Translations under genes and position numbers: made by a program
Shown: positions 18,770-41,668 of the stretch, piece by piece
Layout of the letters: each line of letters starts with the position of its first letter
Numbering within the stretch: position 1 is the stretch's first letter
NCBI GenBank assembly: GCA_905182865.1
Contig: CAJJCY010000002.1
Span: 131,040-195,039, forward strand
Length of the DNA stretch: 64,000 bases
Origin: an uncultured SAR324 cluster bacterium
Lineage (GTDB): Bacteria > SAR324 > NAC60-12
Direction: 5' to 3'
The notes under the pieces: model-generated
Databases searched by the model: none
What the model was told of the DNA's origin: nothing
The model's input: the letters and a program-made list of their open reading frames with translations, nothing else

Positions 18770-18933
18770 TATTTTTTCCTATTGAGCGTCCGAGGCTGTA
18801 TACTTTGTTTTAAGATCAAGCTTACTCAAACAAGTGTGCTTCAATTAATTAGCAAGTCTCATGTGGGAACTAAACCACAACTCAAAGCGTTGGGTCCTGC
18901 AACCCCTTTCAGCGTTGCAGGACGTTTTAAACC

Positions 18934-19878
18934 TTACTCAGTGAAAGGCTTCCAAACATCTTCATGCGCAGCTAGCCATGCTTTTGCAGCATCTTGGTGG
19001 CTCATTTTGTCTATATCAACCAACGCAGCCATTTGGCCAATGTCTGTTGAGGTAAACGAAATTTTGCTGAATGCAGTGTACGCAGCAGGGTGTGTTTTCG
19101 GGAACTTATAGTTAGCGGCTTTCTTCAACCAACCTTTTGGTGAACCACATGCTACCGTCACCACCATCCTCTACTCGACAGCCATCAGAAGTACTCTGGG
19201 AATTCGATAAAGACAAACCTTCAGCATCCGTAAAGTTTGGCGTCCAGTTGAAGATGATAGTACCACGACCTTCTTTTTTTGCAGATTCAAGTTCTGCCCA
19301 TAAGTGCATCAGCGACACCAGCAAACTTAACCATGTATTTATCATCAAGCCTAGACCAGCTCAAACGCTCTGGCATTTGTCGCCATGCCAGCTTTGAGGA
19401 CCTTCTAGCCAACGACCTTTGCCACCAGAATCTGCAGTTGCAAAAACTTCTGGACAGTTTTTCAAAGCTTCCCAATTTGGTAAGCCTGGGCATAGATTGT
19501 CATCAATTACGTATTGAGGAACACCCATTTCTTCAAGGTCATTGCTGCATGGTTACCTGCATCAATAATTCCACCTTTTGCCATTGCATTATAAAATGAT
19601 TCGCCAAAAGTAGACTGCCAGACTTCATGCGATATGGTTACATCTCCATTACGGATAGCCTCATAAACTGCTTGAGTGTCTGCAGGAACATATTCAACAT
19701 TGTTACCCATGCTTTCAAAAATTCCACCAATAACGTAAGCCATTACAACTTGACTTGACCAGTTATGTGTTGGAATTACAATGGGAGAACTGCTGTCAGC
19801 AGCACTAATTGAGCCCGCGCTGAATGCGAGTATGATGCCTGCGACAATGGCACCAACTGTTCTTTTGATTGTATACAT
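18934..19878 (-). pseudogene. OpuAC/ProX-type periplasmic substrate-binding protein (glycine betaine / choline / TMAO class), at least 3 frame disruptions
   Basis: Fragment 19507-19878 has a signal peptide plus SPIVIPTHNWSSQVVMAYVIGGIFESMG. Further pieces lie in ORFs 19287-19493, 19112-19348 and 18934-19167 (..GSPKGWLKKAANYKFPKTHPAAY..MSHQDAAKAWLAAHEDVWKPFTE), each in a different frame. Confidence 0.7.
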
Positions 19879-20164
19879 TTCTTCTCCTTATTACTTAGAT
19901 TTAGATTTAATTAACCATCATCTCAATCAGACGGAAAATTTTTTAACAATTACTAATTACACCTGATCATAGTAAATTATCCTCCTTTAATAAATTAGGT
20001 AACTAAGAAGATTCGGAATTCAAAGAAATCCATGAAATTGCACTGACCCCTCACCCTATTCTACATTAAGAAACTATAAGGATACTCTGCGTACAGTTCT
20101 GCTTTGAACTTTATATATATATATAAATTATGTCAAGGTTTAATTTATTTTTTAAATTTTTTAC

Positions 20165-20193
20165 TTGACACAAATTTTGCATCCCAGTATATT
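20165..20193 (+). promoter_or_regulatory. candidate sigma70-type promoter upstream of amt
   Basis: TTGACA (20165-20170), a 17-nt spacer, then TATATT (20188-20193), preceded by an A/T tract. The sequence TTTACTTGACA..ATTTT..CA is shared with the site upstream of tdm (35485-35516). Confidence 0.4.
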
Positions 20194-20311
20194 TCTTTAA
20201 TTGTAACACAATTCAGTGTTGCATTATAAGAAGCACCGATAGTGATTTTATTCTGTAAGTGGCTTTGAAATAACTTTCTGTGTTTTAACCAAAAAGTAAA
20301 TTGGAGGTTAT

Positions 20312-21637
20312 ATGGGTTATGATATGACTATGGAGATCTCAGCTCTTAACGAAATATTCGTGGAGTTTTATTACTGGATCACTGTGCCTTTAATGTTCCT
20401 GATTCACGTCGGCTTCTGTTTGTACGAAGTCAGCATATCAAGAGCAAAGAATCATATGCATACATTGATGAAGAACGCGATGCTGGTTCCGGTGGTTACG
20501 GTCACGTTTTTCTTATTCGGTTTCTGGATTTGGTTCGCGGGTCAAGGTCCTTTTGGTGATTTCGCCGGCGGAACAACCGGCTTGCCATGGGATGCAACTA
20601 TGGGTGCAAACGTTAAGGATCACATCATGGGTGTATTCTGGGCTGCGTTCCTGCTGTTTTCGTGGACTGCGGCTTCCATTGTTTCTGGTGCAGTGATTGA
20701 ACGTATTCGCACCGGTGCCTTCCTCATTCTGGCTGTTTTAGTTGGTTCCGTAACTTGGATGATTGATGCGGCATGGGGTTGGAGTCCAGCCGGATGGATG
20801 GTTACTGATTGGGGCTATCACGATGCATATGCTTCTGGTGTTATTCATGGCATCTGCGGAGGAGCAGCACTTGGTATCCTGACTGTGTTGGGACCACGCA
20901 TAGGCAAATTTGCTCCCGACGGCACGCCCAGGGACATACCTCCAAATAATCCGTGGTTTGCAGTCATTGGCCTGTTCATCATCTATACAGGTTTCTGGGG
21001 CTTCTATGCGGCCTGCAACTTACCAATTGGTAATGTCAATGGCGTTTGGACAGCCACCACGATTTACGGTACTCCAACAACATTGAGTACAATAACGTTC
21101 AACTTCCTCATGTCCCTTGCGGGTGGCATGCTGGCTGGATACTTTATGTCCAAGGGAGATTCTTTCTGGACCTTTTCCGGAGGACTGGGTGGAATCATTG
21201 CGGCTTCAGCCGGAAATGACCTCTATCATCCACTGCAAGCTTTCCTGATTGGAATTGCTGGGGTTTGCATCGCTTACAAACTCCACTTCTGGGTCGAGCG
21301 CAAGTTCAAGATTGACGATGCCGTTGGTGCCGTTGCGGTACATGGATATGCCGGATCTTTCGGAGTGATAGTTTGTGGATTCATGCTCTGGGGCTACCCT
21401 GCAGTACTTGACGGTTCAGCTACGATTAACCCGTTGGGACAAATCGGCGGCGCGATCATGATGTTTTTTGTGCTGGGCTTCATCCCGACCTTTATCGTCG
21501 CAAAAGTTTTGAATGCCATGGGGATTCTTAGGATTCCACATAAGGTTGAGTTGGCAGGACTGGATTATGTTGAAGAACAAACCAGGGCTGCGGACAGTCA
21601 GGCGATTGTTGATGCAGAATTAGCAGAAGCTAAATAA
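20312..21637 (+). CDS. amt: ammonium/methylammonium transporter (Amt/MEP family)
   Basis: 441 aa with about 11 TM segments and Amt-type conserved blocks (..AVHGYAGSFGVIVCG..). A GGAGG RBS lies 5 nt upstream of the ATG. Confidence 0.85.
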   Translation: MGYDMTMEISALNEIFVEFYYWITVPLMFLIHVGFCLYEVSISRAKNHMHTLMKNAMLVPVVTVTFFLFGFWIWFAGQGPFGDFAGGTTGLPWDATMGANVKDHIMGVFWAAFLLFSWTAASIVSGAVIERIRTGAFLILAVLVGSVTWMIDAAWGWSPAGWMVTDWGYHDAYASGVIHGICGGAALGILTVLGPRIGKFAPDGTPRDIPPNNPWFAVIGLFIIYTGFWGFYAACNLPIGNVNGVWTATTIYGTPTTLSTITFNFLMSLAGGMLAGYFMSKGDSFWTFSGGLGGIIAASAGNDLYHPLQAFLIGIAGVCIAYKLHFWVERKFKIDDAVGAVAVHGYAGSFGVIVCGFMLWGYPAVLDGSATINPLGQIGGAIMMFFVLGFIPTFIVAKVLNAMGILRIPHKVELAGLDYVEEQTRAADSQAIVDAELAEAK

Positions 21638-22023: not shown

Positions 22024-23366
22024 TCAGTCGTGGTTTTTTCCAGGAATCCAATCTGTTCCGGAAAGGGGGACTTGCGCCATTGCGGCGGCTTCCACTGTCA
22101 AGGCGACCAAGTCTTCCGGTTCAAGATTGTGGACATGACTTTTCCCGCAAGCACGAGCGATGGTCTGTGCTTCAAGTGTCATCACCTTGAGATAATTCGC
22201 CAATCGCCTACCTGCCAAAACAGGATCAAGCCGTTTAGATAACTCTGGATCTTGAGTGGAAATTCCGGCAGGATCCCGCCCTTCGTGCCAGTCGTCATAA
22301 GCTCCGGCAGTCGTGCCGAGTTTTTGATATTCCTCTTCCAGTTCAGGATCGTTGTCTCCCAACGCCACCAATGCGGCGGTTCCTATAGAAACCGCATCCG
22401 CTCCCAACGCTAAAGCTTTTGCGACATCGGCACCATTCCGGATGCCTCCGGAAACAATCAACTGTACTTTCCGGTGCATTCCCAATTCCTGCAACGCTTT
22501 GACCGCCGGTCTAATGCAGGCAAGCGTCGGTTGGCCGACGTGTTCGATGAACACTTCTTGTGTCGCCGCCGTGCCGCCTTGCATTCCGTCCAGATCACGA
22601 TTGCATCTGCACCGGCTTTAACGGCCAATGTTACATCATAGTAAGGACGTGCACCGGCTACTTTTACATAGATTGGCACTTTCCAACCTGTGATTTCACG
22701 CAGTTCCAATATCTTGATTTCTAGATCATCGGGGCCTGTCCAATCCGGGTGACGACAAGCAGAACGCTGATCGATCCCTTTCGGAAGATTGCGCATGCCA
22801 GCGACACGGTCGGAGATTTTTTGGCCCAACAGCATGCCACCACCACCAGGTTTGGCCCCTTGGCCAACCACGATTTCGATTGCATCCGCTTTTCGCAGAT
22901 CGTCGGGGTTCATTCCATAGCGTGATGGTAGATATTGGTAGACCAGCTTGTTTGAATGCCCACGCTCTTCGGGTGTCATGCCGCCATCACCAGTCGTCGT
23001 TGATGTGCCCGCCATGGATGCACCTCGGCCCAAAGCTTCTTTTGCTGGGCCGGATAGGGCACCAAAAGACATGCCCGCGATGGTGATCGGTATATCCAAG
23101 TGGATCGGGTTAGAGGCGTGAAGCCCACCGATGGTTACGGAGGTGTCGCATTTCTCGCGGTAGCCTTCTAAAGGGTAGCGCGAGATGGAAGCACCCATAA
23201 ACAACAAGTCATCAAAGGATGGAACTTTGCGTTTTGCCCCACCGCCGCGAATATCATAGATACCCGTGGCTGCGGCGCGGCGGATGTCGCTGTTTACATC
23301 AGCGGAGAAGGTCGCAGACTGCCGTGGCGTCGTGTGCGGGATACCTTTATCGTCGTGGCTATTCAT
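22024..23366 (-). CDS. mgsC: N-methylglutamate synthase subunit C-like (glutamate synthase FMN/domain-2 homolog), set 1, frame-disrupted
   Basis: ORF 22458-23366 (..ITIAGMSFGALSGPAKEALGRGASMAGTSTTTGDGG..GQGAKPGGGG..) and ORF 22024-22584 (..VSGGIRNGADVAKALALGADAV..STQDPELSKRLDP) have frames differing by 2, with the shift at about 22585-22600. Confidence 0.8.
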
Positions 23367-23377
23367 TTTCAGTATCC

Positions 23378-24061
23378 TTAATACGCGCCGGCGTTATCGA
23401 CGTCGAAGTTATAGAGCGTGCGGGCAGAGCCGTAGCGCGTGAATTCTTCCGGCTTTGCATCCACTCCAGATTCCGCGATGATTTCTCTCAGGAATTCGAT
23501 GTGCTCAGGCCGCATTTCTTTTTTCGCGCAGTCAGCGCCAAGGGATTTAACTGAGCCGCGTACAAAGAAACGTGCTTCATAACAGCTGTCCCCCAACGCA
23601 TCGCCTGCGTCACCGCACACAACCAGGTTGCCAGATTGGCCCATAAACGCGGACATGTGGCCGATGTTGCCTTGTACGACAATATTCACGCCCTTCATCG
23701 AAATGCCGCAGCGCGAGGATGCGTTGCCTTTGACAACGATCAGCCCACCATGGGCGGTGGCTCCAAGATACTGGCTGGCGTCGCCCTCGATGATAATTTT
23801 CCCGGACATCATGTTTTCGCCAGTCCCCGGACCGGCCGAACCATGAACGTGAATGGTGGCCTGTTTGTTCATGCCGCCACAGTAGTATCCGGTGGATCCT
23901 TTAACGTTCACCTCAAGTGGGGCGTCTAGACCAACGGCTATAGCATGGCTGCCTTTGGGATTGGTTACCTCCCAAACGGTTTGGTTGGTTTCCGTAGATT
24001 GAGCGTTCAGCGTTGAGTTCAACACGCGCAACCCCTGCGCTTCAAGATCGAAACTTTGCAT
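23378..24061 (-). CDS. mgsB: N-methylglutamate synthase subunit B-like (GXGXG-motif GltB C-terminal-domain homolog), set 1
   Basis: 227 aa with repeated beta-helix G-x-G motifs (VKGSTGYYCGG, VHGSAGPGTGE, IEGDASQYLGA, VKGNASSRCG, VQGNIGHMSAFMG, VCGDAGDALGD). Its start codon overlaps the mgsA stop (TAATG at 24059-24063). Confidence 0.8.
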   Translation of the reverse strand: MQSFDLEAQGLRVLNSTLNAQSTETNQTVWEVTNPKGSHAIAVGLDAPLEVNVKGSTGYYCGGMNKQATIHVHGSAGPGTGENMMSGKIIIEGDASQYLGATAHGGLIVVKGNASSRCGISMKGVNIVVQGNIGHMSAFMGQSGNLVVCGDAGDALGDSCYEARFFVRGSVKSLGADCAKKEMRPEHIEFLREIIAESGVDAKPEEFTRYGSARTLYNFDVDNAGAY

Positions 24062-25012
24062 TAGGCGGCTTTCTCTTTTGACGTTGGTGCCTCGTTATGG
24101 CTCCAGAAATATACTGTCGCTGGCTCTGGCTCCCAAACGCGGGCTTTTTCTATGCCCGGCAGGTTCACCAGTGCACGATACTCGGACCCGAAGGCGACGT
24201 ATTGATCGGTTTCGGCCATCACTGCGGGCTTACAGGCAATTGGGTCACGGACGACGCCGAAACCGTCTTTGGTGCCAACAACAAATGTGAAGAACCCGTC
24301 TAAGTCCTCAAGGGCACTTTCCATGGCTTGGCCAAGGGTGGCACCCTCTTGCATACGCCATGTGAGGTAAGCTGCGCCAACTTCAGTGTCGTTCTCGGTT
24401 TCAATGTGAACACCAAGGCGGCGCAAACGGCGGCGCAATGAATTGTGGTTGGATAGCGAACCGTTGTGCACAAGGCACTGATCTGGACCGGTGTTGAAGG
24501 GGTGTGCACCCATTGTTGTTACAGCTGACTTTCCGTTGCCATCCGCGTGTGTCCGATTCCATGTGAGTTCCTGAAGCATGACTTAGGTTGAATTGCTCGT
24601 AGACCGTTTCCGGAGATCCAACTTCCTTGAATATTTCAATCGACTGTCCACTACCGACAATCCGGATTTCAGCCAGAACGTCCGGTGCAGACTGTGAATT
24701 TTTCAACCACCGGACAACTTTATCTTCGTCCGCATCTGTAACGAGAATACAATGTGTACCCACCGTTTTAATAGAAACAGAACACTGCAGCGTTGCAGCC
24801 AATTCAGTTTCCAGCGTTTCCCAAGAGAAATCTGGATCATCGTGCGCTAATGAAAATTTAGTCTGTCCCGACTCTACAGGGTTCCGGTAAATGGCCACTC
24901 CTGCTGAATCCGGACCTCGACTGCTCATTTCCACCAGCATGGGCTGAAACATGCTACCCAGTTGTGACTGCAATTCAGAATTTTTCAAATACAAACCGAC
25001 AATTCCACACAT
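24061..25012 (-). CDS. mgsA: N-methylglutamate synthase subunit A-like (class-II glutamine amidotransferase homolog), set 1, frame-disrupted
   Basis: ORF 24401-25012 begins MCGIVGLY (Ntn Cys). ORF 24061-24579 carries ..HPFNTGPDQCLVHNGSLSNH..DTEV..RDPIACKPAV. The frames differ by 1, with the shift at about 24560-24590. Confidence 0.8.
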
Positions 25013-25014
25013 AC

Positions 25015-25443
25015 CTAATTTTTCTGTTCAAGAGGCTCATTGAGTTCAATCACATAGCCGTCAGGGTCTTTGATGAAGGCCAGAATCCGTGTTCCGTTTT
25101 TCATCGGTGATGGTTCTTTGGTAAATTCCACTCCATGCTGTTTTAAATACTCACTGGTCTCATACACATCCGACACTTTAATAGCCAGATGACCCCAGCC
25201 GTTCCCCTTGACGTAGTCTTCTTCTTCATCCCAATTGTAAGTCAATTCGATATTTGTACCCTCATCCTCACCAATATAGCCTACAAAAGTATTGGTGAAT
25301 CGACCTTCGGGATATTCAGTTTTACGGTGAATTTTCATGCCCAATATTCTTGTGTAAAAATCCAGACTCCGATCCAAATCTTTCACCCGGATCATGGTAT
25401 GATCCAGCCGAAAATCAGGCATGGATAACGTTTTTTCAGTCAT
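25015..25443 (-). CDS. gloA: lactoylglutathione lyase (glyoxalase I, VOC superfamily)
   Basis: 142 aa, alignable by eye with E. coli GloA (HTMIRVKDLDRSLDFYTRILGMK...FVGY...IELTYNW...GHLAIKV...AFIKDPDGYVIEL). Its TAG stop lies 2 nt before the mgsA ATG. Confidence 0.85.
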   Translation of the reverse strand: MTEKTLSMPDFRLDHTMIRVKDLDRSLDFYTRILGMKIHRKTEYPEGRFTNTFVGYIGEDEGTNIELTYNWDEEEDYVKGNGWGHLAIKVSDVYETSEYLKQHGVEFTKEPSPMKNGTRILAFIKDPDGYVIELNEPLEQKN

Positions 25444-25505
25444 TGTTTTTTTCCTTTAGTTAAAGGTTAATGCAACCGTAAAAAGTTTAAAAATACAAGA
25501 ACCTC

Positions 25506-25607
25506 ACCACAGAGGTTTCATAGATATACTAATAAAAACAGCCCTCTGTGTCCTCTGTGGTAAAATAGTTTTTGTGCGTTTTTAGACTTTTTACTACTGC
25601 ATCAAGG
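25506..25607. repeat. palindromic intergenic repeat, variant D
   Basis: Inverted arms accacagagg (25506-25515) and cctctgtggt (25552-25561), followed by the tail ..tgcgtttttagactttttactactgcatcaagg. This resembles the GACTTTTTGA tail of copies A-C. Confidence 0.55.
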
Positions 25608-26729
25608 TTAATTATTCAAACCCGGACGAATGGCATCGGCAACCAATTCCTGAAAACTCCGGACACTGGATTCCCAATACGGAGATAAAAATCCGCCTTG
25701 TCGGGCCGCATCCGAGTGGCGTCCTTCCTGAAGCCGTTCACACATCGCATGATCTTCTTTGTGTACACTTTCCCACAGTCTGCTGATTTTTTCAACCACT
25801 TCAGTGCTTTGATCAGAATCTTTGTGTTGATAAATCACCCGTCTTTGGCAGGTTATCCCTGCGGACACAGGCTGATTGAGATGGACTCCAATTTGATCAG
25901 GATAGTAAACTCCCAGCACAAAGTTCGGAAACAAAGTCAAATACCTCGAACTAACGGACAGTGTTCCTTCCTGCGCTTTCTCCTGTTGCTCCGAAGTCAG
26001 GTCAACTGCACTTCCCAGACAATGTCCGTCACTTACGACATAGTGATCCTCTAACGGCTGATTTGTGGTTTTTTTATGTACAAATTGAACGTGATACGGT
26101 TCAATGAAATTTTCCATCAAGAGTTTCCAGTTTGATTTTATTTCACCAAATTCAATGCTGGCGACCACAACAAAATCATCCAGATCAATTCCTGCTAATT
26201 GTTTTTTCATGGGAGCAATGTGTGACTCGAATGATACCGTGTCACAGTTGAGATTAACAAATATCCAATCATGCCAGATTGCAATTTTGACAGAATGAAG
26301 TCCATGCTCTGTCATATTAAATCCTTCAGGTTGGTGCTCTCTCCCTCCAAAAAAAGGAGTGGCGCAAAGATCACCGTCTAGATTATAGGTCCATGAATGA
26401 TATGGGCAAGATAGCATTGAACCAACATTGCATGCCTCATCAACAATTTTCAGGTTTCTATGGCGGCAGACATTGTGGAATGCGCGGATTTTATTTTTTG
26501 AACTACGGACTAGAATCAATGGTTGTCCTGCCATATCCAAAGGAGTTATGTCACCGACCTGAGCAAGGTCATGCGCGAAACCTGCGAATGTCCAAGATTT
26601 AGCAAAAACAAGCTTTGATTCCAGTTCATAAAAATTTTTACTGGTATAAGCTGCGGAAGGTAAACCATGTTTAACATTCTCGTTTTCATCGAATGCTGAA
26701 AACAACTGTGTCCCCTTTAAATCTGACAT
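25608..26729 (-). CDS. Rieske [2Fe-2S] non-heme-iron oxygenase, alpha subunit (CntA/GbcA/choline-monooxygenase-like size class)
   Basis: 373 aa. Rieske motif CRHRNLKI...CPYHSWTY and mononuclear iron motif NFIEPYHVQFVH. No beta subunit or reductase is adjacent. Confidence 0.8.
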   Translation of the reverse strand: MSDLKGTQLFSAFDENENVKHGLPSAAYTSKNFYELESKLVFAKSWTFAGFAHDLAQVGDITPLDMAGQPLILVRSSKNKIRAFHNVCRHRNLKIVDEACNVGSMLSCPYHSWTYNLDGDLCATPFFGGREHQPEGFNMTEHGLHSVKIAIWHDWIFVNLNCDTVSFESHIAPMKKQLAGIDLDDFVVVASIEFGEIKSNWKLLMENFIEPYHVQFVHKKTTNQPLEDHYVVSDGHCLGSAVDLTSEQQEKAQEGTLSVSSRYLTLFPNFVLGVYYPDQIGVHLNQPVSAGITCQRRVIYQHKDSDQSTEVVEKISRLWESVHKEDHAMCERLQEGRHSDAARQGGFLSPYWESSVRSFQELVADAIRPGLNN

Positions 26730-27043
26730 AAAGCAATTCTCTTTATTTTATGGAAAGTTTAGACTATTGCAAAATATATTTTGACTAATTTAACAAATAC
26801 TATAGAAATATATCATCATTTTTTTGTCAATATAAATTTTTTATTGAGAGAAAGAGAAATTGTCTTTTGCCATTCTGTAACAGATTAAATTTTTACCCCG
26901 TTTTTGGAGCATCACTGTTTCGTCTCAAAAGACATCGATCAATTTGAAATAATGGCTGGCATTGAAATGTTCAAGAATCAATTTATTTTAAAACGTCAGG
27001 CACTTTAACAACATTTTTTTATCAACTCAATAAGGAGAACAGC

Positions 27044-28465
27044 ATGAGCATGATCTATCACGAAAATTTTGTGGACGCACTGCCGGAAATGGCGCGTGTC
27101 AAAGAAGAAAAGAAACGACTTGAAGCAGCCGGAGTCAAATACATTCTGTCGTGCTGGATTGATCTTTTGGGTGTGCCTAAAACGAAACCTGTACCGATCA
27201 GCGATTTTGAATTGTTGTGTATGGGCAAGGGACCTCAGTTTGCGGTTCATTCCATTTCCTTTGTTCCGGAACTCGGCCCGGCGGATTCCGATCAGATTCC
27301 GGTTCCTGATTTGGACAGCCTGATCATATGCCCGTGGGATTCAACCTGTGCCTGGATGTTTGCCGATTTGTGGTGGGAGGGACATCCTTACAACCTTTGT
27401 CCGCGCAGTGCACTCAAACGCATCATTAAGGATACAGCAGATCAGGGTTATGCGGTTATGGCAGGAATTGAACCTGAGTTCATGGTGATGAAGTGGCATG
27501 ATGGGCAGCCTGTCAAAGCATTTGATAATGATCCAAATTCTGGTCAGGGTTTGCGTCCGCGCCGACAGGCTTTCGGTTACGACGTGGAATATTCGATTGA
27601 TTCAATGAGTTTCCTCGGAGAGTTGATTGACATTATTGAAGGGCTGGGATGGAATATACACGATGTTGTGGCAGAGGGTGCATACTCTCAGTTTGAGCTG
27701 GATTTTCATTACACGGATGTTTTACGCATGGCCGACCGCTTTGTTTTTTTGCGTGTTTTGCTCAAGGAAGTGGCCAAACGTCACGGCATGTTTGTTACAT
27801 TTATGCCAAAAACCACCATCGGCGATTGGCGTTCCGGAGCTCATTTGAATACCTCCATGCAGCCGATTGATAAACCGGGGACGAATTTTTTTGAAAGCAA
27901 ATCCGGCGGCTGGTCTGATTCGGTATTTAATGCAATCGGCGGGTTATTGCGACACGGCGGAGCACTGACTGCGATTGCCTGTTCAACGGTCAATTCTTAC
28001 AACGGACTTGTTCCAAGGGTCGGAGGTTTTGAAGGGGGCACTGTAACCTGGGCACCGACTCACATGACTTACGGCTACAACAATCGATCAGCCATGTTAC
28101 GCTTGCCGCAGAGTCGTTTTTGTATTGAAAACCGGGCAGCGGACATGTGTATGAATCCCTACCTCTCACTGGGCTTGACCACCGCCGCAATGACCGAAGG
28201 CATCGTCAACAACTTTTCTCCAGGAGAACCGTTGAACAAGGATTTGTATAGCATGAGTAAAGAAGACCTTGAACGCTCCGGTGCCCAACAACTTCCCCGA
28301 AATTTGCTGGAAGCGATTGAAATTTTGCGAGGTGATGAATTTGCGAGGAAAGTACTTGGTGCTTCAATGATTAATTCGTTTCTCCTCTACAAAACAGACG
28401 AATGGGAACGCTACCACCAAGCCGTCACCGATTGGGAAGTCGAAGAATATTTGAGATTGTACTGA
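27044..28465 (+). CDS. glutamine synthetase-like (gamma-glutamyl-amide synthetase-type) protein, divergent paralog 1, intact
   Basis: 473 aa with the GS catalytic-domain pattern (EPEFMV.., SQFELDF, FMPKTTIGDWRSGAHLNTSM, NSYNGL, NNRSAMLRLP, ENRAADMCMNPYL). The Gly-rich GSG.H.H.S block is atypical (RSGAHLNTS). Confidence 0.75.
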   Translation: MSMIYHENFVDALPEMARVKEEKKRLEAAGVKYILSCWIDLLGVPKTKPVPISDFELLCMGKGPQFAVHSISFVPELGPADSDQIPVPDLDSLIICPWDSTCAWMFADLWWEGHPYNLCPRSALKRIIKDTADQGYAVMAGIEPEFMVMKWHDGQPVKAFDNDPNSGQGLRPRRQAFGYDVEYSIDSMSFLGELIDIIEGLGWNIHDVVAEGAYSQFELDFHYTDVLRMADRFVFLRVLLKEVAKRHGMFVTFMPKTTIGDWRSGAHLNTSMQPIDKPGTNFFESKSGGWSDSVFNAIGGLLRHGGALTAIACSTVNSYNGLVPRVGGFEGGTVTWAPTHMTYGYNNRSAMLRLPQSRFCIENRAADMCMNPYLSLGLTTAAMTEGIVNNFSPGEPLNKDLYSMSKEDLERSGAQQLPRNLLEAIEILRGDEFARKVLGASMINSFLLYKTDEWERYHQAVTDWEVEEYLRLY

Positions 28466-28480
28466 TTTCGATGGGGTATT

Positions 28481-29830
28481 GTGATGAATGTAGAGCAATT
28501 CAGTTTAAAAGGATACGCCGGATACGAAACCAGTTTGTCAGAGCACCCCGATGAGGAACTGACTCAAGTCGGGCCGAAAACTCCTTGTGGAGAATATCTG
28601 CGACGGTTCTGGCATCCGGTTTATCTCACCAATGATCTCTGTGATCTACCTGTTACCCTTAAAATTCTTGGCGAAGAACTGGTTTTGTTTCGAGACCTCT
28701 CCGGAACCTTGGGTCTGGTTCACAAGCGTTGTCCGCATCGGCAGGCTTCTCTGGAATACGGTAAATGTGAGGAACATGGAATCCGTTGTTGTTATCACGG
28801 TTGGCACTTCGACACCGACGGGAAGTTACTTGATGCACCGGGACAACCAGAAAATCTTAGTGATCGTCTGAAACTTCGGATCAAACTGGGTGCCTATCCG
28901 GTCGTTGAATACAAGGGGTTGATTTTCAGCTATATGGGGCCAATCGCGGAAATGCCGGAATTTCCGGTTTTTGATGCGATGGAATTTGAAAAGATGGAAA
29001 TGGTGCCTTATAAAGCTCCATTTCGCTGTAACTGGCTTCAGGTGCAGGATGCCATTCTTGACCCGTTGCACACCAGTTTTCTACATTCCAATATAGGACG
29101 CATGCAGTTCTCCAAGGGTTTTGGCGAAGTCGGGCAAATGGACTTTTTTGAGCGGGATGTCTGGATACTTGGAGTTAATACACGACGTGTTGGAGAAAAC
29201 GTCTGGTTCCGGGTGAATGAACTGGTTCTGCCAAATTTCACACAGGCGGGCAGTGCTTTCGCCGCAGACGGAACTCTGCGTCGTTTGTATGGACGCAGTT
29301 CTTTTACTCGCTGGGTTGTTCCGGTGGACGACGAAAACACGCTGGCACTGGCGTGGGCCAATTTCGGTGAGCGAGGTGATCCTCCCGAATGGAACACGCC
29401 GGAAGGTCCGGAACTCATCGAACAAGGAGAAGTGTTTGACAGGACTTACGAGGAACGCCAACGCTCGCCCGGAGACGCAGAAGCCACCGAAGGCATGGGA
29501 CGGATAACGGTTCACAAAAATGAAAACCTTGTCAGTAGTGACCGGGGAATCGCTTTGATGCGCAAACGCCTGCGGGAGCAAATCCGGGCCGTTCAAAACG
29601 GGAAATCTCCTGCGCGAGCTTCCGTAGCGAATTCTGGTTTGATCCCGACTTACGGTGGAGACACCGTGCTACGGATTCCACTTAAAGGAGATCCGGACGA
29701 ATCACAGACTTTGAGCGAGTTGGCTCATGCGTTTATGGAAATGCAGTATCAAGCTGACGATTTGAACGAGGATGAACGGGTGCGTTTTGTCGGTGAGAAG
29801 CTTACGGAACTGGAAACTAAAACTACATGA
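28481..29830 (+). CDS. Rieske [2Fe-2S] non-heme-iron oxygenase, alpha subunit (second, unrelated paralog)
   Basis: 449 aa. Rieske motif CPHRQASL...CCYHGWHF and iron motif DAILDPLHTSFLHS. It starts 15 nt after the GS-like gene (GTG 28481 or ATG 28484). Confidence 0.8.
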   Translation: MMNVEQFSLKGYAGYETSLSEHPDEELTQVGPKTPCGEYLRRFWHPVYLTNDLCDLPVTLKILGEELVLFRDLSGTLGLVHKRCPHRQASLEYGKCEEHGIRCCYHGWHFDTDGKLLDAPGQPENLSDRLKLRIKLGAYPVVEYKGLIFSYMGPIAEMPEFPVFDAMEFEKMEMVPYKAPFRCNWLQVQDAILDPLHTSFLHSNIGRMQFSKGFGEVGQMDFFERDVWILGVNTRRVGENVWFRVNELVLPNFTQAGSAFAADGTLRRLYGRSSFTRWVVPVDDENTLALAWANFGERGDPPEWNTPEGPELIEQGEVFDRTYEERQRSPGDAEATEGMGRITVHKNENLVSSDRGIALMRKRLREQIRAVQNGKSPARASVANSGLIPTYGGDTVLRIPLKGDPDESQTLSELAHAFMEMQYQADDLNEDERVRFVGEKLTELETKTT

Positions 29831-29878
29831 TAATCCAACAATCCAATCGTAATTTATCTAAAATTTACAAAAATAGGA

Positions 29879-30904
29879 ATGACAAACAATAAACTCCGTA
29901 TTCACATCAAGAACAACCACGCCTCTTCGGGGACTTTCCCACCGACCATTGAAGGCGAGGAAGTTTTCACCATCACCGAGGAAAGGTTTAGGGTCGCTTG
30001 TGAACGCTTTCCCGCAGTCGCGGAGCAGGTGGAGGCGTTTATTGATTGGGACCTGGAGCATTTCGCCGAATCAATGGAAACCGCCGATGTTCTTGTCACA
30101 TGGAATTTACCGACCACAAACCTCGCCAAAGTCGCGCCACAATTGAAACTGATTCATATTATTGGCGCAGGAGTCGAGCATCTCTGCCCGATGGACTGGG
30201 TTCCGGAAGGTGTAAAAGTGGTCAACAACCGGGGAGTTCACGCAGCGAAAGGAGGGGAGTTCGGCTTGATGTCGGTGCTGATGCTCAACAACCGGATTAC
30301 CGCGATTGCCGAAAACCAGCGTCGCGCAAATTGGGAATCGTTGTACTCCAGTCCTGTTGCCAAAAAAACTTTGGTAGTGATCGGGGTTGGAAACATCGGT
30401 GGTGCTGCCGGACAGCAGTGTGCGAGGCTGGGAATGGAAGTCATTGGTATCAGCCGACACGGTAAGCCTGTAGAGGGCTTCAACCAAGTGCTGACTCCGA
30501 AAGCACTGGTGGAGGTGCTGCCCAAGGCTGATTTTGTTTTGATGGCCACGCCCTTGACTCCGGAAACAGAAAACCTGCTTGACCGTCAGAAACAGGCTCT
30601 GATCAAACCCGGAGCGGGGATCATAAACGTCGGTAGATCCGGAACGATGGATTATGAGGCGCTGGTCGAGAATCTCAACCGAGGTCATTTTTCAGGTGCC
30701 ATCATCGACGTGTTTGACCCAGAACCACTTCCAGCCGATTCTCCTTTGTGGACAACTCCGAATTTGCTCGTCACTCCCCACATTTCGGCAGATGACGGCA
30801 ACACTTATGTTGAGATGACTTTGGGTTTGGTTTTCGAAAACCTTGAACGGTATTTAAAAGGACAGGAGTTGAAAAATTTGGTTCGTCCTGAATTAGGTTA
30901 CTGA
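29879..30904 (+). CDS. D-isomer-specific 2-hydroxyacid dehydrogenase family, NAD-binding
   Basis: 341 aa. Rossmann motif VIGVGNIGGAAGQQCARLGMEV, plus the ..NVGRSG..D..AL.. and TPHISA blocks typical of the family. Confidence 0.75.
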   Translation: MTNNKLRIHIKNNHASSGTFPPTIEGEEVFTITEERFRVACERFPAVAEQVEAFIDWDLEHFAESMETADVLVTWNLPTTNLAKVAPQLKLIHIIGAGVEHLCPMDWVPEGVKVVNNRGVHAAKGGEFGLMSVLMLNNRITAIAENQRRANWESLYSSPVAKKTLVVIGVGNIGGAAGQQCARLGMEVIGISRHGKPVEGFNQVLTPKALVEVLPKADFVLMATPLTPETENLLDRQKQALIKPGAGIINVGRSGTMDYEALVENLNRGHFSGAIIDVFDPEPLPADSPLWTTPNLLVTPHISADDGNTYVEMTLGLVFENLERYLKGQELKNLVRPELGY

Positions 30905-31125
30905 GCTTTGAAAACCTTTGACAACTAGTGTTTTGTAAAGAGATTTGTAAAAGAAAAGTAGTTATTTAAATACACTTTCAGGTGTACCCACTTTAGGATA
31001 GATACCCAACATACGCTCTTGTTTCAGGTAACATTTACTTCAACATAGCAAGAATGTAAGGACCTTTCCCTGGCTTACATTACGGTTTACCATGTTTTAT
31101 AATAGCCATATCTTCCCCTTATTGA

Positions 31126-31497
31126 CTAAGTTTTTTTACTATAGAAATAGAACAACGCGGCGAAAACCACCCAGACTCCAGACTCCACAATTTGGGCCAC
31201 TGAAGCCGGTAAGACACCGGTGACCACATGAAAAATATTCATAGCGACAGGCATCAGTGACACCACCATTAAAGTGGAACCGGCCTTGGCCAGATTCTCT
31301 CCCAGCCAACTGGGAAGTTGCCAAACAACAATTGCAAACATAAGCTGAACCATTACCATAAACTGAATGAGCAGACTTGAATCACTGGACAGTTCCAACC
31401 CATAACTCTCCATCATGGCGTCTGTTGCCAGCAGGCTCATTAAGGCAAAGAAAGCGCCGAAACCGGCAAAGATTCTGAATACGAGTTTAAGATTCAT
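31126..31497 (-). CDS. small integral membrane protein (4 predicted TM)
   Basis: 123-aa hydrophobic ORF with no recognisable family. Confidence 0.45.
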   Translation of the reverse strand: MNLKLVFRIFAGFGAFFALMSLLATDAMMESYGLELSSDSSLLIQFMVMVQLMFAIVVWQLPSWLGENLAKAGSTLMVVSLMPVAMNIFHVVTGVLPASVAQIVESGVWVVFAALFYFYSKKT

Positions 31498-31655
31498 TTT
31501 ATTCTCCTTCGTTTGAATTATTGGAACAGGAATGATACAATCTTCACCGGATCTTATCTGACAATCTTCAGCAAAGCTTGTGCCTCCTGAATCAATAATA
31601 CACTCGTTGTGAGGGTGGCTGTCAACTCTTTTTTTAAATGAATTTTAAATAAATT

Positions 31656-32678
31656 TTGGAAACACCACTAAAACATTTTCAACTCGGAAATGTCGAGTTG
31701 CTCTCCGGAAAGATTCTTCCGGATGCGGTGCTGGCCTACAGCACTTACGGAAAATTGAGTCCGGATAAAGACAATGTGGTACTTCTTCCGACCTTCTACA
31801 CAGGAAGCCATATCCGAAACGAAGGATTTTTCGGTGCGGGAAGAGCCGTTGATCCTGCACGGCATTTCGTGATTTCTGTCAATATGTTCGGTAATGGGTT
31901 TTCGTCTTCTCCTAGTAACGCATCTCCTCCGGCAGATGGACAGCGTTTCCCGGAGATCTCACTTTATGACAACATCAGCTGTCAGCACCGTTTATTGACC
32001 GAAAAATTCGGTATTGAACACATACGGCTTGTTGCGGGTTGGTCGATGGCGGGCTGTCAAGCCTATCACTGGGCGGCGCAGTTTCCGGAAATGGTGGAGG
32101 CGATTCTGCCGTTTTGTGCATCAGCCCGGACATCACCCCACAATTTTGTATTTTTGGAAGGCGTGAAAGCCGCACTCACCGCCGATCAAAATTGGCAAAA
32201 CGGACATTATGATTCGCCTCCGGAAGCCGGCTTGAAAGCATTTGCGCGAGTTTACGCCGGTTGGGCTTTTTCACAAACTTTTTACCGTGATGAGTTGTAT
32301 AAAACATTGGGATTTGAAACTCCAGAAGATTTGTTAAAGGATTGGGAAGCAGATCATTTGGAGTGGGATGCGAATAATCTTTTAAGTAAATTACGGACTT
32401 GGCAAACGGCCGATATCAGTGCAAACCCAGTTTACGCAGGAGATTTTCAGCAGGCACTTAAAGCAATTCAAGCCAAAACCATTGTGATTGCCTGCAGTTC
32501 AGACTTGTATTTTCCACCGGAAGATAATGAGATTGAAGTGTGCCAAATGCGAGACGCGGAATTACGAATTTACGATTCGCCTTGGGGACACTGCGTCGCT
32601 TCACCGGGGAACGACCCCCAATTTACCCGTTTTCTTGATTCTGCAATTTCAGAGCTTTTGGAAACGGATTTTTCTTGA
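31656..32678 (+). CDS. alpha/beta hydrolase, homoserine O-acetyltransferase (MetX)-like family
   Basis: 340 aa with a MetX-like N-terminus (LLSGKILPDAVLAYSTYGKLSPDKDNVVLLPTFYTGSH), nucleophile elbow GWSMAG and a late His (SPWGH). TTG start. Confidence 0.65.
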   Translation: METPLKHFQLGNVELLSGKILPDAVLAYSTYGKLSPDKDNVVLLPTFYTGSHIRNEGFFGAGRAVDPARHFVISVNMFGNGFSSSPSNASPPADGQRFPEISLYDNISCQHRLLTEKFGIEHIRLVAGWSMAGCQAYHWAAQFPEMVEAILPFCASARTSPHNFVFLEGVKAALTADQNWQNGHYDSPPEAGLKAFARVYAGWAFSQTFYRDELYKTLGFETPEDLLKDWEADHLEWDANNLLSKLRTWQTADISANPVYAGDFQQALKAIQAKTIVIACSSDLYFPPEDNEIEVCQMRDAELRIYDSPWGHCVASPGNDPQFTRFLDSAISELLETDFS

Positions 32679-32726
32679 TGTTCGTCAAAACGGCATCATA
32701 AATCATCAACAATAAAAGGATTAAAA

Positions 32727-33113
32727 ATGACTAAACCTACTGTTTTCAAACGTGCAGACATTCAACACCGCAAAGACGGTCTTGAAGATGGCGGAACTTA
32801 CATCAAACCCTTGGTGACCGTGAAGAACAGCGAAAGCATGGCTGGTGGAGTGAACTTTTTGAAAAAAGTTTCCATTCCCTGGGATTTAACTTGTGATGAA
32901 ATTATCTATTGCCACGAAGGAAATTTTCGTTTGATGTGTGACGGAGAAGCATACGAACTTGGTCCGGGCGACATGATGCTCGTTCCCAAAGACAATCATA
33001 TTTGCTATGAAACAGATGATGAATGCACTATCTTCTATGCCGCCTATCCGGTGAACTGGAAACAACTGGCTGGTTTGACCGAAGTTCCGGGTATCGATCC
33101 TGAAGATATGTGA
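32727..33113 (+). CDS. cupin-fold protein (EutQ/DUF861-like)
   Basis: 128 aa with a cupin-like pattern (..DEIIYCHEGNFRLMCDGEAYELGPGDMMLVPKDN..). Confidence 0.5.
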   Translation: MTKPTVFKRADIQHRKDGLEDGGTYIKPLVTVKNSESMAGGVNFLKKVSIPWDLTCDEIIYCHEGNFRLMCDGEAYELGPGDMMLVPKDNHICYETDDECTIFYAAYPVNWKQLAGLTEVPGIDPEDM

Positions 33114-33300
33114 CTCAGTAATGGTTGTTTCAGGTGGAGTCACATCCACAACATTCTTATTTTTGTAATCCCAACCTATTTATGTTACATTTTGGGTACT
33201 AGTAATAAAACAAACAGTATTATTTTACTTTTGAAATTGAGGTAAAAAGGGGACGCCCTTCGATACATCTTTTTAACTAACTGAAAAGGAAAGAATCATC

Positions 33301-33792
33301 ATGGGAGAAGACACCTACCGCAGGCCGAGCTGGGACGAATATTTTTTAGGATTGATGGATGAGGTGGGCAAACGCGCAACCTGCGACAGGGGCCGCAGCG
33401 GATGCATCGTGGTCCGGGACAAGCAGATCGTCTGTACGGGCTATGTTGGTTCTCCTCCGGGATTCCCCCATTGTGATGAGGTGGGACATTTGATGAAGAA
33501 GGTCGTGGAGGAGGATGGCACGTCCCGAATGCATTGTGTGAGGACCATTCATGCGGAGCAGAATGCGATCTGTCAGGCCGCCAAAAACGGGATTTCGCTC
33601 AAAGGAGGCACCTTGTACTGCAAGATGGAACCCTGCCGCGTCTGCGCGATGCTGATCATCAGCGTGGGCATCACTAAGGTGATTGCCAAAAAAAAATACC
33701 ATGCAGCTCAAGATACCCGAGACATGTTCCAGCAGGCCAGGGTCGAATTGGTCGTGGTTGAGGATGAAGTAGAGCAGTATTCGGGTCAGTGA
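33301..33792 (+). CDS. dCMP deaminase (CMP/dCMP deaminase zinc-binding family)
   Basis: 163 aa. HAEQNAI and PCRVCAMLI zinc motifs, with a ComEB/dCMP-deaminase-like N-terminus (SWDEYFLGLMDEVGKRATC). The start of the gene is about 57% GC by hand count. Confidence 0.85.
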   Translation: MGEDTYRRPSWDEYFLGLMDEVGKRATCDRGRSGCIVVRDKQIVCTGYVGSPPGFPHCDEVGHLMKKVVEEDGTSRMHCVRTIHAEQNAICQAAKNGISLKGGTLYCKMEPCRVCAMLIISVGITKVIAKKKYHAAQDTRDMFQQARVELVVVEDEVEQYSGQ

Positions 33793-33867
33793 GGTCCTCC
33801 AACCATCTATACACACTATACGGTTTCCACTTGGCTTGAACTGATCTACCTTGCTGCCGGACTAGAG

Positions 33868-35185
33868 TTAATTATTACTTAAACATCCAACGCATTTTGT
33901 CGTTCCCATTCGGAGAAGTGCTGCATATAGCTGTTCCATTCGTTCCATCTTGAGCTTGACATATGAGTCCGCAAACTCAGCGCCAAGGATGTTTCGCATA
34001 GATTTGTTATTCTGGAAGGCACGCAGTGCATCCAGTAAGTTAAGAGGAAGCTTTGGTGCATTTTTAACTTTGTGACCCTCGGCATACATATCAATATCCA
34101 GTCGTTTTCCGGGATCAGTTTTGTTTTCTACGCCCCATAAGCCTGCCCCAATCAGCACTGCCTGCAGCAGATAAGGATTAGCGGCACCATCTGGCAAGCG
34201 CACTTCAAACCGGTCCTGGTCCTGGAACGCGACCATGTGGGTTCGGTTATTTCCAGTCCAAGTCACGGTATTGGGCGCCCAGGTTGCTCCTGAAGTGGTG
34301 CGTGGGGCATTGATACGTTTGATAACTGTTCACTGTTGGATTTGTGATTGCGGCCAAGCTGACGCATGTTTCATGAATGCCACCTATAAAATACACGCCT
34401 CTTGCGACAAAGTCCGCCTATTTATCTCCTGCAGATTCTGGTTTGCCATCTTTTCCAGATCGACATATTGACATGCATGCCCGTTGCCATTGTCAGCTCG
34501 GCAATCGGCTTGGGCATGAAGGTCGCTGTTTTGCCATAGGCTTGTGCCACATTGTGGATGACATATTTAAAGAATACATGTCTATCAGCTGTAGTTAAGC
34601 AATCAGTATAATCCCAGTTCATTTCAAACTGTCCATTCGCGTCTTCGTGATCATTTTGATATGGCCCCCAGCCCATAGTCTCCATGCTGGTCGCAGATTT
34701 CCGAATTACATCATAATCTGCCGCATCAGTGCCTGCTGGTCATAACAGGGTTTGGCTTGAATATCGGCTGAATCCGCGACAGCTGTTCCTTCAGGATTCA
34801 ATATAAAGTATTCACACTCAACCCCGGTTTTCACTTGAAAACCTTTTTCTCCCGCATCAGCAAGTACTTGTTTTAATACAGTGCGGGGACCGTGCGCCAC
34901 AATTTTTCCACCAAGATAAATATCACTGGGCAACCAGCCTACCTCCGGTTTCCATGGTAACTGTATCAGCCTATCGGCGTCAGGAACCCCGAACATGTCT
35001 GAATCTGCAGGGGTCATGTCAAGATGCGCAGCAAAGCCGGCGAAACCAGCACCGTTTTTCTGCATGCCTGCTATCGCAGCAGCAGGAACCAATTTTGACC
35101 TGACTACTCCAAACAAGTCAGTGAAACTAATTAAAAAATATCGTATACCCTTTTCCTTTGCTGTTTCCGCAAGACTGATACTCAT
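33868..35185 (-). pseudogene. gmaS: gamma-glutamylmethylamide synthetase-like GS paralog 2, at least 4 frame disruptions
   Basis: Fragments are 34706-35185 (N-domain ..GIRYFLISFTDLFGVVRSKLVP..GVECEYFIL), 34422-34685 (YQNDHEDANGQFEMNWDY..TATFMPKPIAELT) and 33868-34266 (TWTGNNRTHMV..RFEVRLPDGAANPYLL..). The true C-terminus (EWNSYMQHFSEWERQNALDV) sits in a fourth frame (33879-34094). Confidence 0.75.
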
Positions 35186-41608: not shown

Positions 41609-41668
41609 GTTTAACATATTTGGAAACGGGCAGATCCGTATTCTTTAATTTTCAAGCAGAGAAAAACA

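Follow-up and report, generated by a model that had tools for sequence, protein, structure and literature searches.

Locus organization

The genes described here lie in a 64,000-nucleotide (nt) stretch of an uncultured SAR324 cluster bacterium (GenBank assembly GCA_905182865.1, contig CAJJCY010000002.1, positions 131,040 to 195,039), which is referred to in its entirety as the window and in which all coordinates are counted. They center on GSL, a predicted glutamate-amine ligase of the glutamine synthetase (GS) family that is encoded beside two Rieske oxygenases and a 2-hydroxyacid dehydrogenase. A first-pass annotation of the window had grouped these four open reading frames (ORFs) into a cluster spanning 25608-30904. 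The four ORFs are located exactly where that annotation placed them, with gaps of 314, 15 and 48 nt, and Pfam confirms the domains assigned to each; none reaches an NCBIfam equivalog cut-off. The borders were drawn too narrowly, since the conserved unit extends in the window from about 22024 to 35185 and includes a MetX-like hydrolase that had been missed. This larger gene cluster, apparently undescribed, is common to SAR324, sponge symbionts and other marine bacteria. Its components in the window are as follows.

22024-23366, minus strand: mgsC', FMN glutamate-synthase-like subunit of the N-methylglutamate-synthase type (Pfam Glu_synthase)
23378-24061, minus strand: mgsB' (Pfam GXGXG)
24061-25012, minus strand: mgsA', class-II amidotransferase subunit (Pfam GATase_6/7)
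25015-25443, minus strand: glyoxalase I (lactoylglutathione lyase; TIGR00068, PDB plant GLXI)
25608-26729, minus strand: Rieske 1, an alpha-only group-V (Va-like) Rieske non-heme-iron oxygenase (Pfam Rieske and Ring_hydroxyl_A)
26862-27005, plus strand: relic of an Lrp/AsnC regulator, C-terminal 48 amino acids (tblastn with the L010 regulator)
27044-28465, plus strand: GSL, predicted GS-family ATP-dependent glutamate-amine ligase of a new clade (Gln-synt_C, 277 bits)
28481-29830, plus strand: Rieske 2, an alpha-only phthalate-family Rieske oxygenase with a GTG start (Pfam Rieske and LigXa_C)
29879-30904, plus strand: D-isomer-specific 2-hydroxyacid dehydrogenase (Pfam 2-Hacid_dh_C, 1.6e-47)
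31126-31497, minus strand: small hydrophobic ORF of 123 amino acids, without a Pfam or NCBIfam match
31656-32678, plus strand: MetX-like alpha/beta hydrolase (NCBIfam PRK07581)
32727-33113, plus strand: EutQ-like cupin (Pfam EutQ, 9e-18; PDB EutQ 4axo/2pyt, 2e-11)
33868-35185, minus strand: true GmaS (gamma-glutamylmethylamide synthetase), with its gene disrupted into three ORFs in this sequence

The region between Rieske 1 and GSL has the 314 nt attributed to it, yet it is not the empty divergent spacer that had been described, because it holds the remnant of a regulator gene. This remnant is 73% identical to the regulator of locus L010 (E 2e-16); loci from other genomes are denoted by such L numbers throughout. 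In 41 other loci, a full Lrp/AsnC regulator lies immediately ahead of the ligase. The same relic occurs in the near-identical contig L002, which indicates that the deletion is real. The small ORF at 31126-31497 is present only in the window and in near-identical contigs and is probably lineage-specific and outside the conserved system. A dCMP-deaminase-like gene (ComEB type) at 33301-33792, between the cupin and gmaS, is likewise restricted to this lineage and is probably an unrelated housekeeping gene. A scan of 24900-33900 for promoters and terminators returned 19 and 12 sites, respectively, against 12.6 and 9.8 expected from shuffled sequences, and thus gave no clear signal.

Conservation of the gene neighborhood

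Relatives of the ligase were searched for in species-representative genomes using two ligase-specific peptide motifs, which yielded 538 confirmed stretches from SAR324, Gammaproteobacteria and Alphaproteobacteria. The neighborhood survey uses the best 80 of these 538 matches, among which GSL members are at least 71% identical, with one genome per species and tblastn thresholds set by us, and comprises 87 loci in total. Neighbors are counted when they lie within 8 kb of GSL. Counts are based on tblastn searches with the window proteins combined with de novo ORF clustering and refer to the 51 loci flanked by at least 6 kb on both sides. The window matches part of an 883-kb metagenome contig (ENA ERZ1699694), and an identical ligase is found on contigs of several further samples. 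The closest genomes are SAR324 metagenome-assembled genomes with 85-97% protein identity. Cultured Roseobacter-group strains (L092 and L093), among them Leisingera thetidis BMJM1 (pBMJM1_1) and Alisedimentitalea scapharcae KCTC 42119, carry the cluster on plasmids, with a ligase identity of 64-66%; in the plasmid collection, identity falls from 64% directly to 39%.

The survey resolves a core and two portable gene pairs. The core consists of GSL followed almost always by the MetX-like hydrolase (41/51 loci) and usually preceded by the Lrp/AsnC regulator (27/51). The pairs, Rieske 1 with glyoxalase I and Rieske 2 with the D-2-hydroxyacid dehydrogenase, accompany this core in the majority of lineages. 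Rieske 1 is found in 31 of the 51 loci, glyoxalase I in 20, Rieske 2 and the dehydrogenase in 19 and the EutQ-like cupin in 12. At least one Rieske gene is near the ligase in 38/51, so that the proposed pairing of a GS-like protein with a Rieske oxygenase holds across phyla. The hydrolase, present in 71 loci, adjoins GSL in 63 of them and is its most conserved neighbor, and the cupin directly follows the hydrolase in 17/18 loci with both. Within the pairs, glyoxalase I adjoins Rieske 1 in all loci carrying the glyoxalase (30/30) and the dehydrogenase adjoins Rieske 2 in 27/28.

Compact single-strand operons occur in L086 and L094-L098. One strand of L086 holds Rieske 1, gloA, a Rieske-type ferredoxin, Rieske 2, the dehydrogenase, the ligase, the hydrolase and the cupin. 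The L094-L098 loci, which belong to an abundant Thiotrichales lineage and were found later, outside the 87-locus survey, have two divergent units. One comprises the dehydrogenase and Rieske 2, and the other runs from Rieske 1 through gloA, the cupin, lrp, the ligase, mgsA, mgsB, mgsC and a GS gene (437 amino acids) to the hydrolase.

The transporters near the cluster differ by lineage and include TctABC (L104), TAXI-TRAP (L101/L102), DctPQM and a Tau/Ssu-like ATP-binding cassette (ABC) transporter (L092), which are mostly types for organic anions. In Leisingera thetidis, the Tau/Ssu-like transporter sits between the ligase and the hydrolase. The solute-binding protein of this operon was set aside as a substrate clue, as it shows weak Ssu/Tau-family similarity only and a single PDB match (E 0.004).

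The ligase and the hydrolase

GSL contains the atypical Gly-rich block FMPKTTIGDWRSGAHLNTSM described in the first-pass annotation, for which the family consensus is FMPKPTxGDWRSGAH. Its closest PDB entries are two GmaS structures (1e-65), followed by archaeal and Gram-positive GS (approximately 1e-51 to 1e-60). The GS chain of 8wwu, which we take to be NpaA1, matches at 3e-36 and 4hpp, presumably PA5508, at 5e-16. In a neighbor-joining tree, GSL forms a clade of its own that is sister to the GmaS clade at 32-34% identity. It scores 270.8 bits on the GlnA model TIGR00653 (cut-off 429) and 356 bits on the GmaS model TIGR03105 (cut-off 469.6), below both thresholds.

Inspection of the active-site columns leads to the same assignment. 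The Asp50' and flap Glu327 columns of GS are occupied in GSL by Ala67 and Trp336, so that the ammonium residue and the flap glutamate are absent, as they are in GmaS. In GmaS, Asp177 is catalytic and strictly conserved, and Gln175 and Asn188 belong to the substrate pocket (PMC7948447). GSL has Val209 in place of this catalytic base, Asp207 for Gln175, Asp220 for Asn188 and Asn269 for His237; the replacements at Val209, Asp207 and Asp220 are found in all five GSL sequences aligned. The GmaS residues Lys30' (Lys48), Tyr147 (Tyr179), Glu179 (Glu211) and Glu186 (Glu218) and the Arg312/Arg317 columns are kept. The predicted picture is thus one of conserved metal and ATP/glutamate residues with an altered amine pocket. 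Pocket residues and model scores together rule out GSL as a GlnA or a GmaS, in agreement with the earlier expectation that it would prove to be neither.

The pocket strand of GSL (HDVVAEGAY) is nearer that of PuuA (DGAVAEASP), with which it has a V-A-E motif in common, than that of GmaS (QNDHEDAN), which hints at an amine larger than methylamine. Also specific to the clade are the GDWRSGAH block, a flap that exceeds the GmaS flap by three residues and contains a conserved Glu330, and the loop GLRPRRQAFGY. The Arg-rich RPRRQ portion of this loop was considered as proof of an anionic substrate and downgraded, since E. coli GlnA has a similar loop (HRPAVKGGY).

The hydrolase scores 454 bits on PRK07581 against a cut-off of 332, and its nearest PDB entries are 5d6o and 5e4y (6e-62), deposited as 'homoserine O-acetyltransferase'. 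Its triad of Ser130, His312 and Asp283/Asp290 is at least 97% conserved among 70 sequences. It is a candidate gamma-glutamyl-amide hydrolase or thioesterase.

The Rieske oxygenases and their partner enzymes

The nearest PDB structures to Rieske 1 are CntA (1e-28 with phmmer), which matches over almost the full length, and Stc2. Among 121 members of the Rieske 1 family, the cluster ligands Cys88, His90, Cys108 and His111, the bridging Glu210 and the iron ligands His213, His218 and Asp326 are invariant. The column of CntA Tyr203 holds Phe208 in Rieske 1, with 119 Phe and 2 Tyr in the 121 sequences. Clade Va enzymes have an aromatic residue at CntA-203, bind a cationic quaternary nitrogen and oxidize the neighboring carbon, whereas the Vb demethylases have Asn (PMC7948474). 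Rieske 1 therefore carries the predicted group-Va signature for a cationic (methyl)ammonium substrate and is unlikely to act on the neutral nitrogen of a gamma-glutamyl amide.

Rieske 1 has the Rieske CxH/CxxH motif, the 2-His-1-Asp triad, the bridging Glu and the aromatic 203 residue expected of clade Va, but is not equivalent to a characterized member. Its score of 156 bits on the GbcA model lies below the cut-off of 670. In an alignment that is uncertain toward the C-terminus, the CntA pocket residues Phe258, Asn270, Tyr295, Tyr315 and Phe319 correspond to Ser, a gap, Arg, Leu and Val. The Cys pair of CntA is absent and no reductase gene adjoins Rieske 1. The JGI source label for the family is 'choline monooxygenase'. 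One patch of the window gene (26278-26426) is divergent yet in frame and retains all conserved family columns.

Glyoxalase I scores 150.3 bits on TIGR00068 against a cut-off of 120 and matches plant GLXI in the PDB at 1e-57. Because it passes the equivalog cut-off, the product linked to Rieske 1 is, we infer, probably a 2-oxoaldehyde. To our knowledge, a constant pairing with glyoxalase I has not been described for any group V Rieske enzyme. In five related genomes of the sponge-symbiont type (L086 2173-5490, and also L028, L043, L045 and L058), a fused IcmF-like B12-dependent mutase (B12-binding, MeaB and MM_CoA_mutase domains) and a MerR regulator are encoded directly upstream of Rieske 1.

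Rieske 2 is nearest in the PDB to phthalate and isophthalate dioxygenases (4e-43 to 8e-39) and contains the motifs CPH...CCYH and DPLHTSFLH. The dehydrogenase has GVGNIG and the Arg/Glu/His pattern; its best NCBIfam equivalog score is 190.8 bits against a cut-off of 400. Glyoxalase products would be D-2-hydroxy acids and the dehydrogenase is of the D-specific type, which would be a stereochemical fit. In L103 (10001-13549), a Rieske 2-dehydrogenase pair without a ligase lies beside an FMN-dependent alpha-hydroxyacid dehydrogenase, which suggests that the pair makes or consumes a 2-hydroxy acid by itself.

A beta subunit is not to be expected, since both Rieske proteins are members of alpha-only families. 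The first-pass annotation had seen no beta subunit, ferredoxin or reductase, and none appears in a scan that covered part of the window ORFs and was not exhaustive for small redox partners.

Methylamine genes and mosaic segments

The previously noted link between the cluster and mgs/gmaS genes recurs: in SAR324, Thiotrichales and Poriferihabitaceae, genes for a GmaS-type ligase and MgsABC lie within the cluster or next to it. An mgsC homologue lies within the 8-kb limit of the ligase in just 3 of the 87 surveyed loci, and mgs genes are absent within 10 kb in most GSL loci. The comparisons below use the L002 counterparts of the window genes. The counterpart of mgsC' is 79% identical to the L094 MgsC and 52% identical to the second mgsC of the window, to which the L094 MgsC is 50% identical. 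The counterpart of mgsB' is 64% identical to the L094 MgsB, and that of mgsA' is 52% identical to the L094 MgsA and 31% identical to the second mgsA of the window. The 437-amino-acid GS of L094 is 62% identical to the broken GS at 33868-35185. The intact L002 form of the latter reaches 649 bits on TIGR03105, and the two together span 649-674 bits against the cut-off of 469.6. They are 63-65% identical to the crystallized RhGmaS (63% for L002) and have the same residue at 16/16 functional positions. The gene at 33868-35185 is thus a true GmaS.

The cluster lies within a methylated-amine island that occupies 12471-21637 and 35754-43000 of the window and includes the following genes.

12471-13814: Tmm-like flavin monooxygenase
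About 14136-19878: fragments of a glycine-betaine-type (OpuAC) ABC transporter
16366-17556: major facilitator superfamily (MFS) gene
20312-21637: AmtB
35754-38108: Tdm (DUF1989 and GCV_T)
38273-39740: third GS, with a frame change near 39050
39847-43000: second mgsABC, with mgsB frame-shifted near 41303

Neither dmm nor mgd genes are seen in the island around the cluster; the window ORFs that were scanned include no mgd or reductase gene, and L094 has no mgd. The third GS (38273-39740 in the window and 13384-14889 in L077) is 28% identical to crystallized GmaS and keeps the GmaS pocket (Gln175, Asp177, Glu179, Glu186, Asn188, Lys30' and Trp300). It seems to represent a second and divergent type of GmaS. 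Within L077, where the ligase-hydrolase pair is followed by the third-type GS, mgsABC and a DAO-type (mgdA-like) gene, it stands in a canonical gmaS-mgsABC-mgd-like cluster.

Several of these genes are frame-disrupted in the window. A frame change at about 22593 breaks mgsC' into the ORFs 22024-22584 and 22458-23366, and mgsA' is broken at about 24550 into 24061-24579 and 24401-25012. Three independent contigs (L002-L004) with 97.5-97.9% DNA identity over the aligned cluster region carry intact mgsC (442 amino acids) and mgsA (299-305 amino acids), and L002 also carries an intact 435-amino-acid GmaS and OpuAC binding protein. Two mosaic segments, 22593-24561 (about 2 kb) and 33946-34718, have approximately 60-79% protein identity to these contigs between flanks of at least 98%. 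The first of them has about 69% DNA identity to contigs that are otherwise 97-98% identical, and the interval from 22 to 24 kb is GC-rich (54% versus approximately 42% in the flanks). The frame changes, which are real in the window sequence, fall exactly at the junctions of these segments and mark either recombination with a divergent donor or assembly-chimera junctions from a long-read consensus. The four ORFs are intact, as had been noted, but the frame changes are uninformative as to whether they were selectively retained. The view of intact genes in a decaying region is rejected because the near-identical contigs carry the neighboring genes unbroken.

Comparison with known systems

The putrescine (Puu, PuuA-D), isopropylamine (Ipu, IpuC/D/F) and GlnA4 ethanolamine pathways share with the GSL cluster a GS-family ligase encoded together with an oxidizing enzyme and a hydrolase. 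Their logic, in which an amine is tagged with glutamate, oxidized and released from the tag, also fits the genes found here. GSL is 25% identical to PuuA and forms a separate clade, although the V-A-E pocket motif is alike. The oxidizing enzymes of the known pathways are an FAD oxidase, a P450 or dehydrogenases, in contrast to two Rieske oxygenases in the GSL cluster. The hydrolases PuuD and IpuF, like AtdA2, have a class-I amidotransferase fold; the GSL cluster has none of these and has the MetX-like alpha/beta hydrolase instead. It also adds glyoxalase I, the D-2-hydroxyacid dehydrogenase and the cupin. Relative to Puu, Ipu and Atd, different enzyme families occupy all steps except for the ligase superfamily. 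Because a hydrolase partner is part of every known gamma-glutamylation pathway and the hydrolase is the most conserved neighbor of GSL, the glutamylation logic is supported.

With the N-methylglutamate pathway (GmaS, MgsABC and MgdABCD), the cluster shares a ligase that is sister to GmaS and, like it, lacks Asp50' and the flap Glu. It differs in the loss of Asp177, Gln175 and Asn188, and mgd is absent from the scanned window ORFs and from L094. Rieske 1 resembles group V oxygenases (CntA, choline monooxygenase and OxyBAC; GbcA/BmoA and Stc2) in its alpha-only architecture, metal ligands, bridging Glu and aromatic 203. It is nevertheless distant from CntA, has lost the Cys pair and other CntA pocket residues, and has no adjoining CntB- or GbcB-type reductase.

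The first-pass annotation had likened the cluster to aniline dioxygenase. The AtdA1-A5 system is composed of alpha and beta oxygenase subunits, a reductase, and a protein resembling glutamine amidotransferases (GAT-like) alongside the ligase (PMC11335346). A GS-like ligase beside Rieske genes is common to AtdA1-A5, NpaA1-A5 and the GSL cluster, but no GAT-like protein, beta subunit or reductase was found in the window or the inspected loci, and the ligase and oxygenases belong to other subfamilies. The analogy accordingly does not hold at the level of the system. The homarine operon homABCDER (PMC13236597), which was also considered and rejected, encodes FAD, HomB, peptidase and ALDH proteins of other families.

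Proposed pathway and alternative explanations

With a probability of about one half, the four genes are part of a widely conserved catabolic and nitrogen-scavenging cluster for a small amine that probably bears a carboxylate, and is thus amino-acid-like. A catabolic pathway combining gamma-glutamylation and oxygenation, apparently undescribed, is plausible from the gene content, and the favored substrate is an amino-acid-like amine that is possibly N-methylated. GSL would join the gamma-carboxyl of glutamate to the amine with ATP, in the manner of PuuA, IpuC and AtdA1. The Rieske oxygenases would hydroxylate the carbon beside the nitrogen or a carbon on the side chain, leading to C-N cleavage; their electrons would come from a reductase whose gene lies elsewhere or, in some loci, from a Rieske-type ferredoxin. 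One product would be a 2-oxoaldehyde, converted by glyoxalase I to a D-2-hydroxyacyl-glutathione and on to a D-2-hydroxy acid; the other, a 2-oxo or 2-hydroxy acid, would pass to the dehydrogenase. The MetX-like hydrolase may strip the glutamyl group or else cleave the glutathione thioester. Where present, GmaS and MgsABC might assimilate released methylamine or convert the gamma-glutamyl amide to an N-alkylglutamate. Given its signature of cationic-ammonium binders, Rieske 1 would most likely act on the amine before it is glutamylated, on the product once the glutamyl group is off or on a second amino group that is free, and not on the amide nitrogen.

Several observations weigh against this pathway. 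All statements on activity and substrate are inferences. The two structures nearest to the hydrolase are, as we assume, acetyl esterases of the MekB/CgHle type and not amidases, and the Arg-rich GSL loop, the first hint of an anionic substrate, is a weak clue, being partly like its E. coli GlnA counterpart. The types of transporter vary between lineages, a reductase is not encoded nearby in most loci, and neither Rieske gene is near the ligase in 13 of the 51 well-flanked loci. Rieske 2 and its dehydrogenase are also paired in L103, where the ligase is missing, and the modules may serve several pathways. Full-text literature searches for the gene combination found no paper describing the cluster.

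Neighboring genes offer diverse substrate clues: agmatinase/arginase-family genes (L090, L092 and L093), a PotD-like solute-binding protein with a Hist_deacetyl gene (L087), a creatinase-like gene (L088) and a CaiB-like gene (L101). The arginase/agmatinase-family ureohydrolase genes adjoin the cluster in L092 (1488-2453) and L093 (3192-11044), where an arginine-deiminase-family gene also adjoins it, and lie approximately 7 kb from the ligase in L090 (18222-19274). A guanidino compound might be an upstream source of the amine. Polyamines, guanidino acids, carnitine, aminoacetone, 5-aminolevulinate, beta-alanine and sarcosine were each considered as substrates and set aside, since no clue is consistent across lineages.

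The variability of the loci raises the alternative that there is no single pathway and that independent organic-nitrogen modules (ligase-hydrolase, Rieske 1-GloA, Rieske 2-dehydrogenase and gmaS-mgs) travel together. Many module combinations and orders exist, the ligase-hydrolase unit stands alone in 13/51 loci, Rieske 2 and its dehydrogenase occur without the ligase, and the inserts between ligase and hydrolase vary (Rieske 2-dehydrogenase, an ABC transporter or mgsABC-gmaS). Nonetheless, one set of four or five families re-associates across SAR324, Alphaproteobacteria and Gammaproteobacteria, often in tight same-strand operons with one Lrp regulator and very short intergenic gaps, and modules placed between ligase and hydrolase speak for regulation in common; we therefore regard independent modules as unlikely, if worth keeping in view. 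The first-pass annotation favored dimethylamine (DMA) or another simple methylated amine. GSL would glutamylate it and a Rieske enzyme would N-demethylate the amide to gamma-glutamylmethylamide and formaldehyde for MgsABC, as an alternative to DmmDABC, which is missing from many marine taxa (PMC5520151). The cluster does lie between tmm and OpuAC fragments and tdm-GS3-mgsABC with no dmm genes seen, and gmaS/mgs genes accompany it in three lineages. GSL is sister to GmaS, Val in place of the base Asp177 could fit a second methyl group, and both Rieske families include N-demethylases. However, C1 products leave no role for glyoxalase I and the D-2-hydroxyacid dehydrogenase, and the Lrp/AsnC regulator and the TctABC, TAXI-TRAP, DctPQM and Tau/Ssu-like transporters indicate an organic anion. 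Moreover, mgsC is rare near the ligase in the surveyed loci, to which the Thiotrichales loci add a further lineage, Rieske 1 has the Va (C-N cleavage, cation-binding) and not the Vb (demethylase) signature, and we know of no GS-family enzyme that uses a secondary amine. Simple methylated amines are thus improbable substrates. A broader variant, in our estimate a long shot, makes the cluster a general route for secondary N-methyl amines (DMA, sarcosine-like N-methyl amino acids and N-methylated polyamine fragments). In it the Rieske enzyme would remove the non-methyl substituent as a carbonyl, either a 2-oxoaldehyde for glyoxalase I or a 2-oxo acid for the dehydrogenase, and gamma-glutamylmethylamide would go to MgsABC. 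If true, this route would supply the missing step from DMA to monomethylamine in marine bacteria without dmmDABC.

Two further explanations start from the oxygenases. The Rieske 1-glyoxalase pair could be a C-N lyase for a quaternary or methylated alpha-aminoketone, such as 3-dehydrocarnitine or trimethylaminoacetone, that releases trimethylamine or methylamine and a 2-oxoaldehyde, with the ligase and hydrolase only capturing the amine or a side product. CntA as the best solved relative with a nearly full-length match, the conserved aromatic residue at CntA-203 as in clade Va (PMC7948474), the constant glyoxalase partner, the trimethylamine, trimethylamine N-oxide and monomethylamine genes in the window and a CaiB-family CoA-transferase adjoining the cluster in L101/L102 all point this way. 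We hold this lyase to be doubtful, as Rieske 1 has low identity to CntA, neither the Cys pair nor the remainder of the CntA pocket is kept, no carnitine dehydrogenase or CntB-type reductase is nearby and the conserved ligase-hydrolase core is left unexplained. An aniline-dioxygenase-type system for aromatic amines (AtdA1-A5 or NpaA1-A5) would account for a GS-like ligase beside Rieske genes and for the nearest structures of Rieske 2, which act on aromatic acids. It lacks a GAT-like AtdA2, a small oxygenase subunit, an AtdA5 reductase and ring-cleavage genes, its presumed ligase counterpart in 8wwu is far more distant from GSL (3e-36) than GmaS is (1e-65), and the host bacteria are marine oligotrophs and sponge symbionts, which makes such a system extremely improbable. 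For the pathway proposed here, the features that speak against a small methylated amine, namely the carboxylate-type transporters, the Lrp/AsnC regulator, glyoxalase I and the D-2-hydroxyacid dehydrogenase, are those that suggest an amino-acid-like one.

Implications

The ligase family reaches across SAR324, Thiotrichales, sponge-symbiont Gammaproteobacteria, Rhodospirillales and Roseobacters (538 stretches) and is abundant in ocean metagenomes, where single 90% clusters have hundreds of members. Neither the ligase nor its partners has a characterized member. The identity of the substrate would reveal a new specificity in the GS family and add a route to the marine dissolved-organic-nitrogen cycle. 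The association of Rieske 1 with glyoxalase I would be the first case known to us of a quaternary-amine-type Rieske oxygenase coupled to this enzyme. The plasmid-borne form of the cluster in two cultured Roseobacter-group strains makes genetics feasible, and through the recurrent link to methylamine assimilation, the handling of methylated amines in bacteria without Dmm becomes directly testable.

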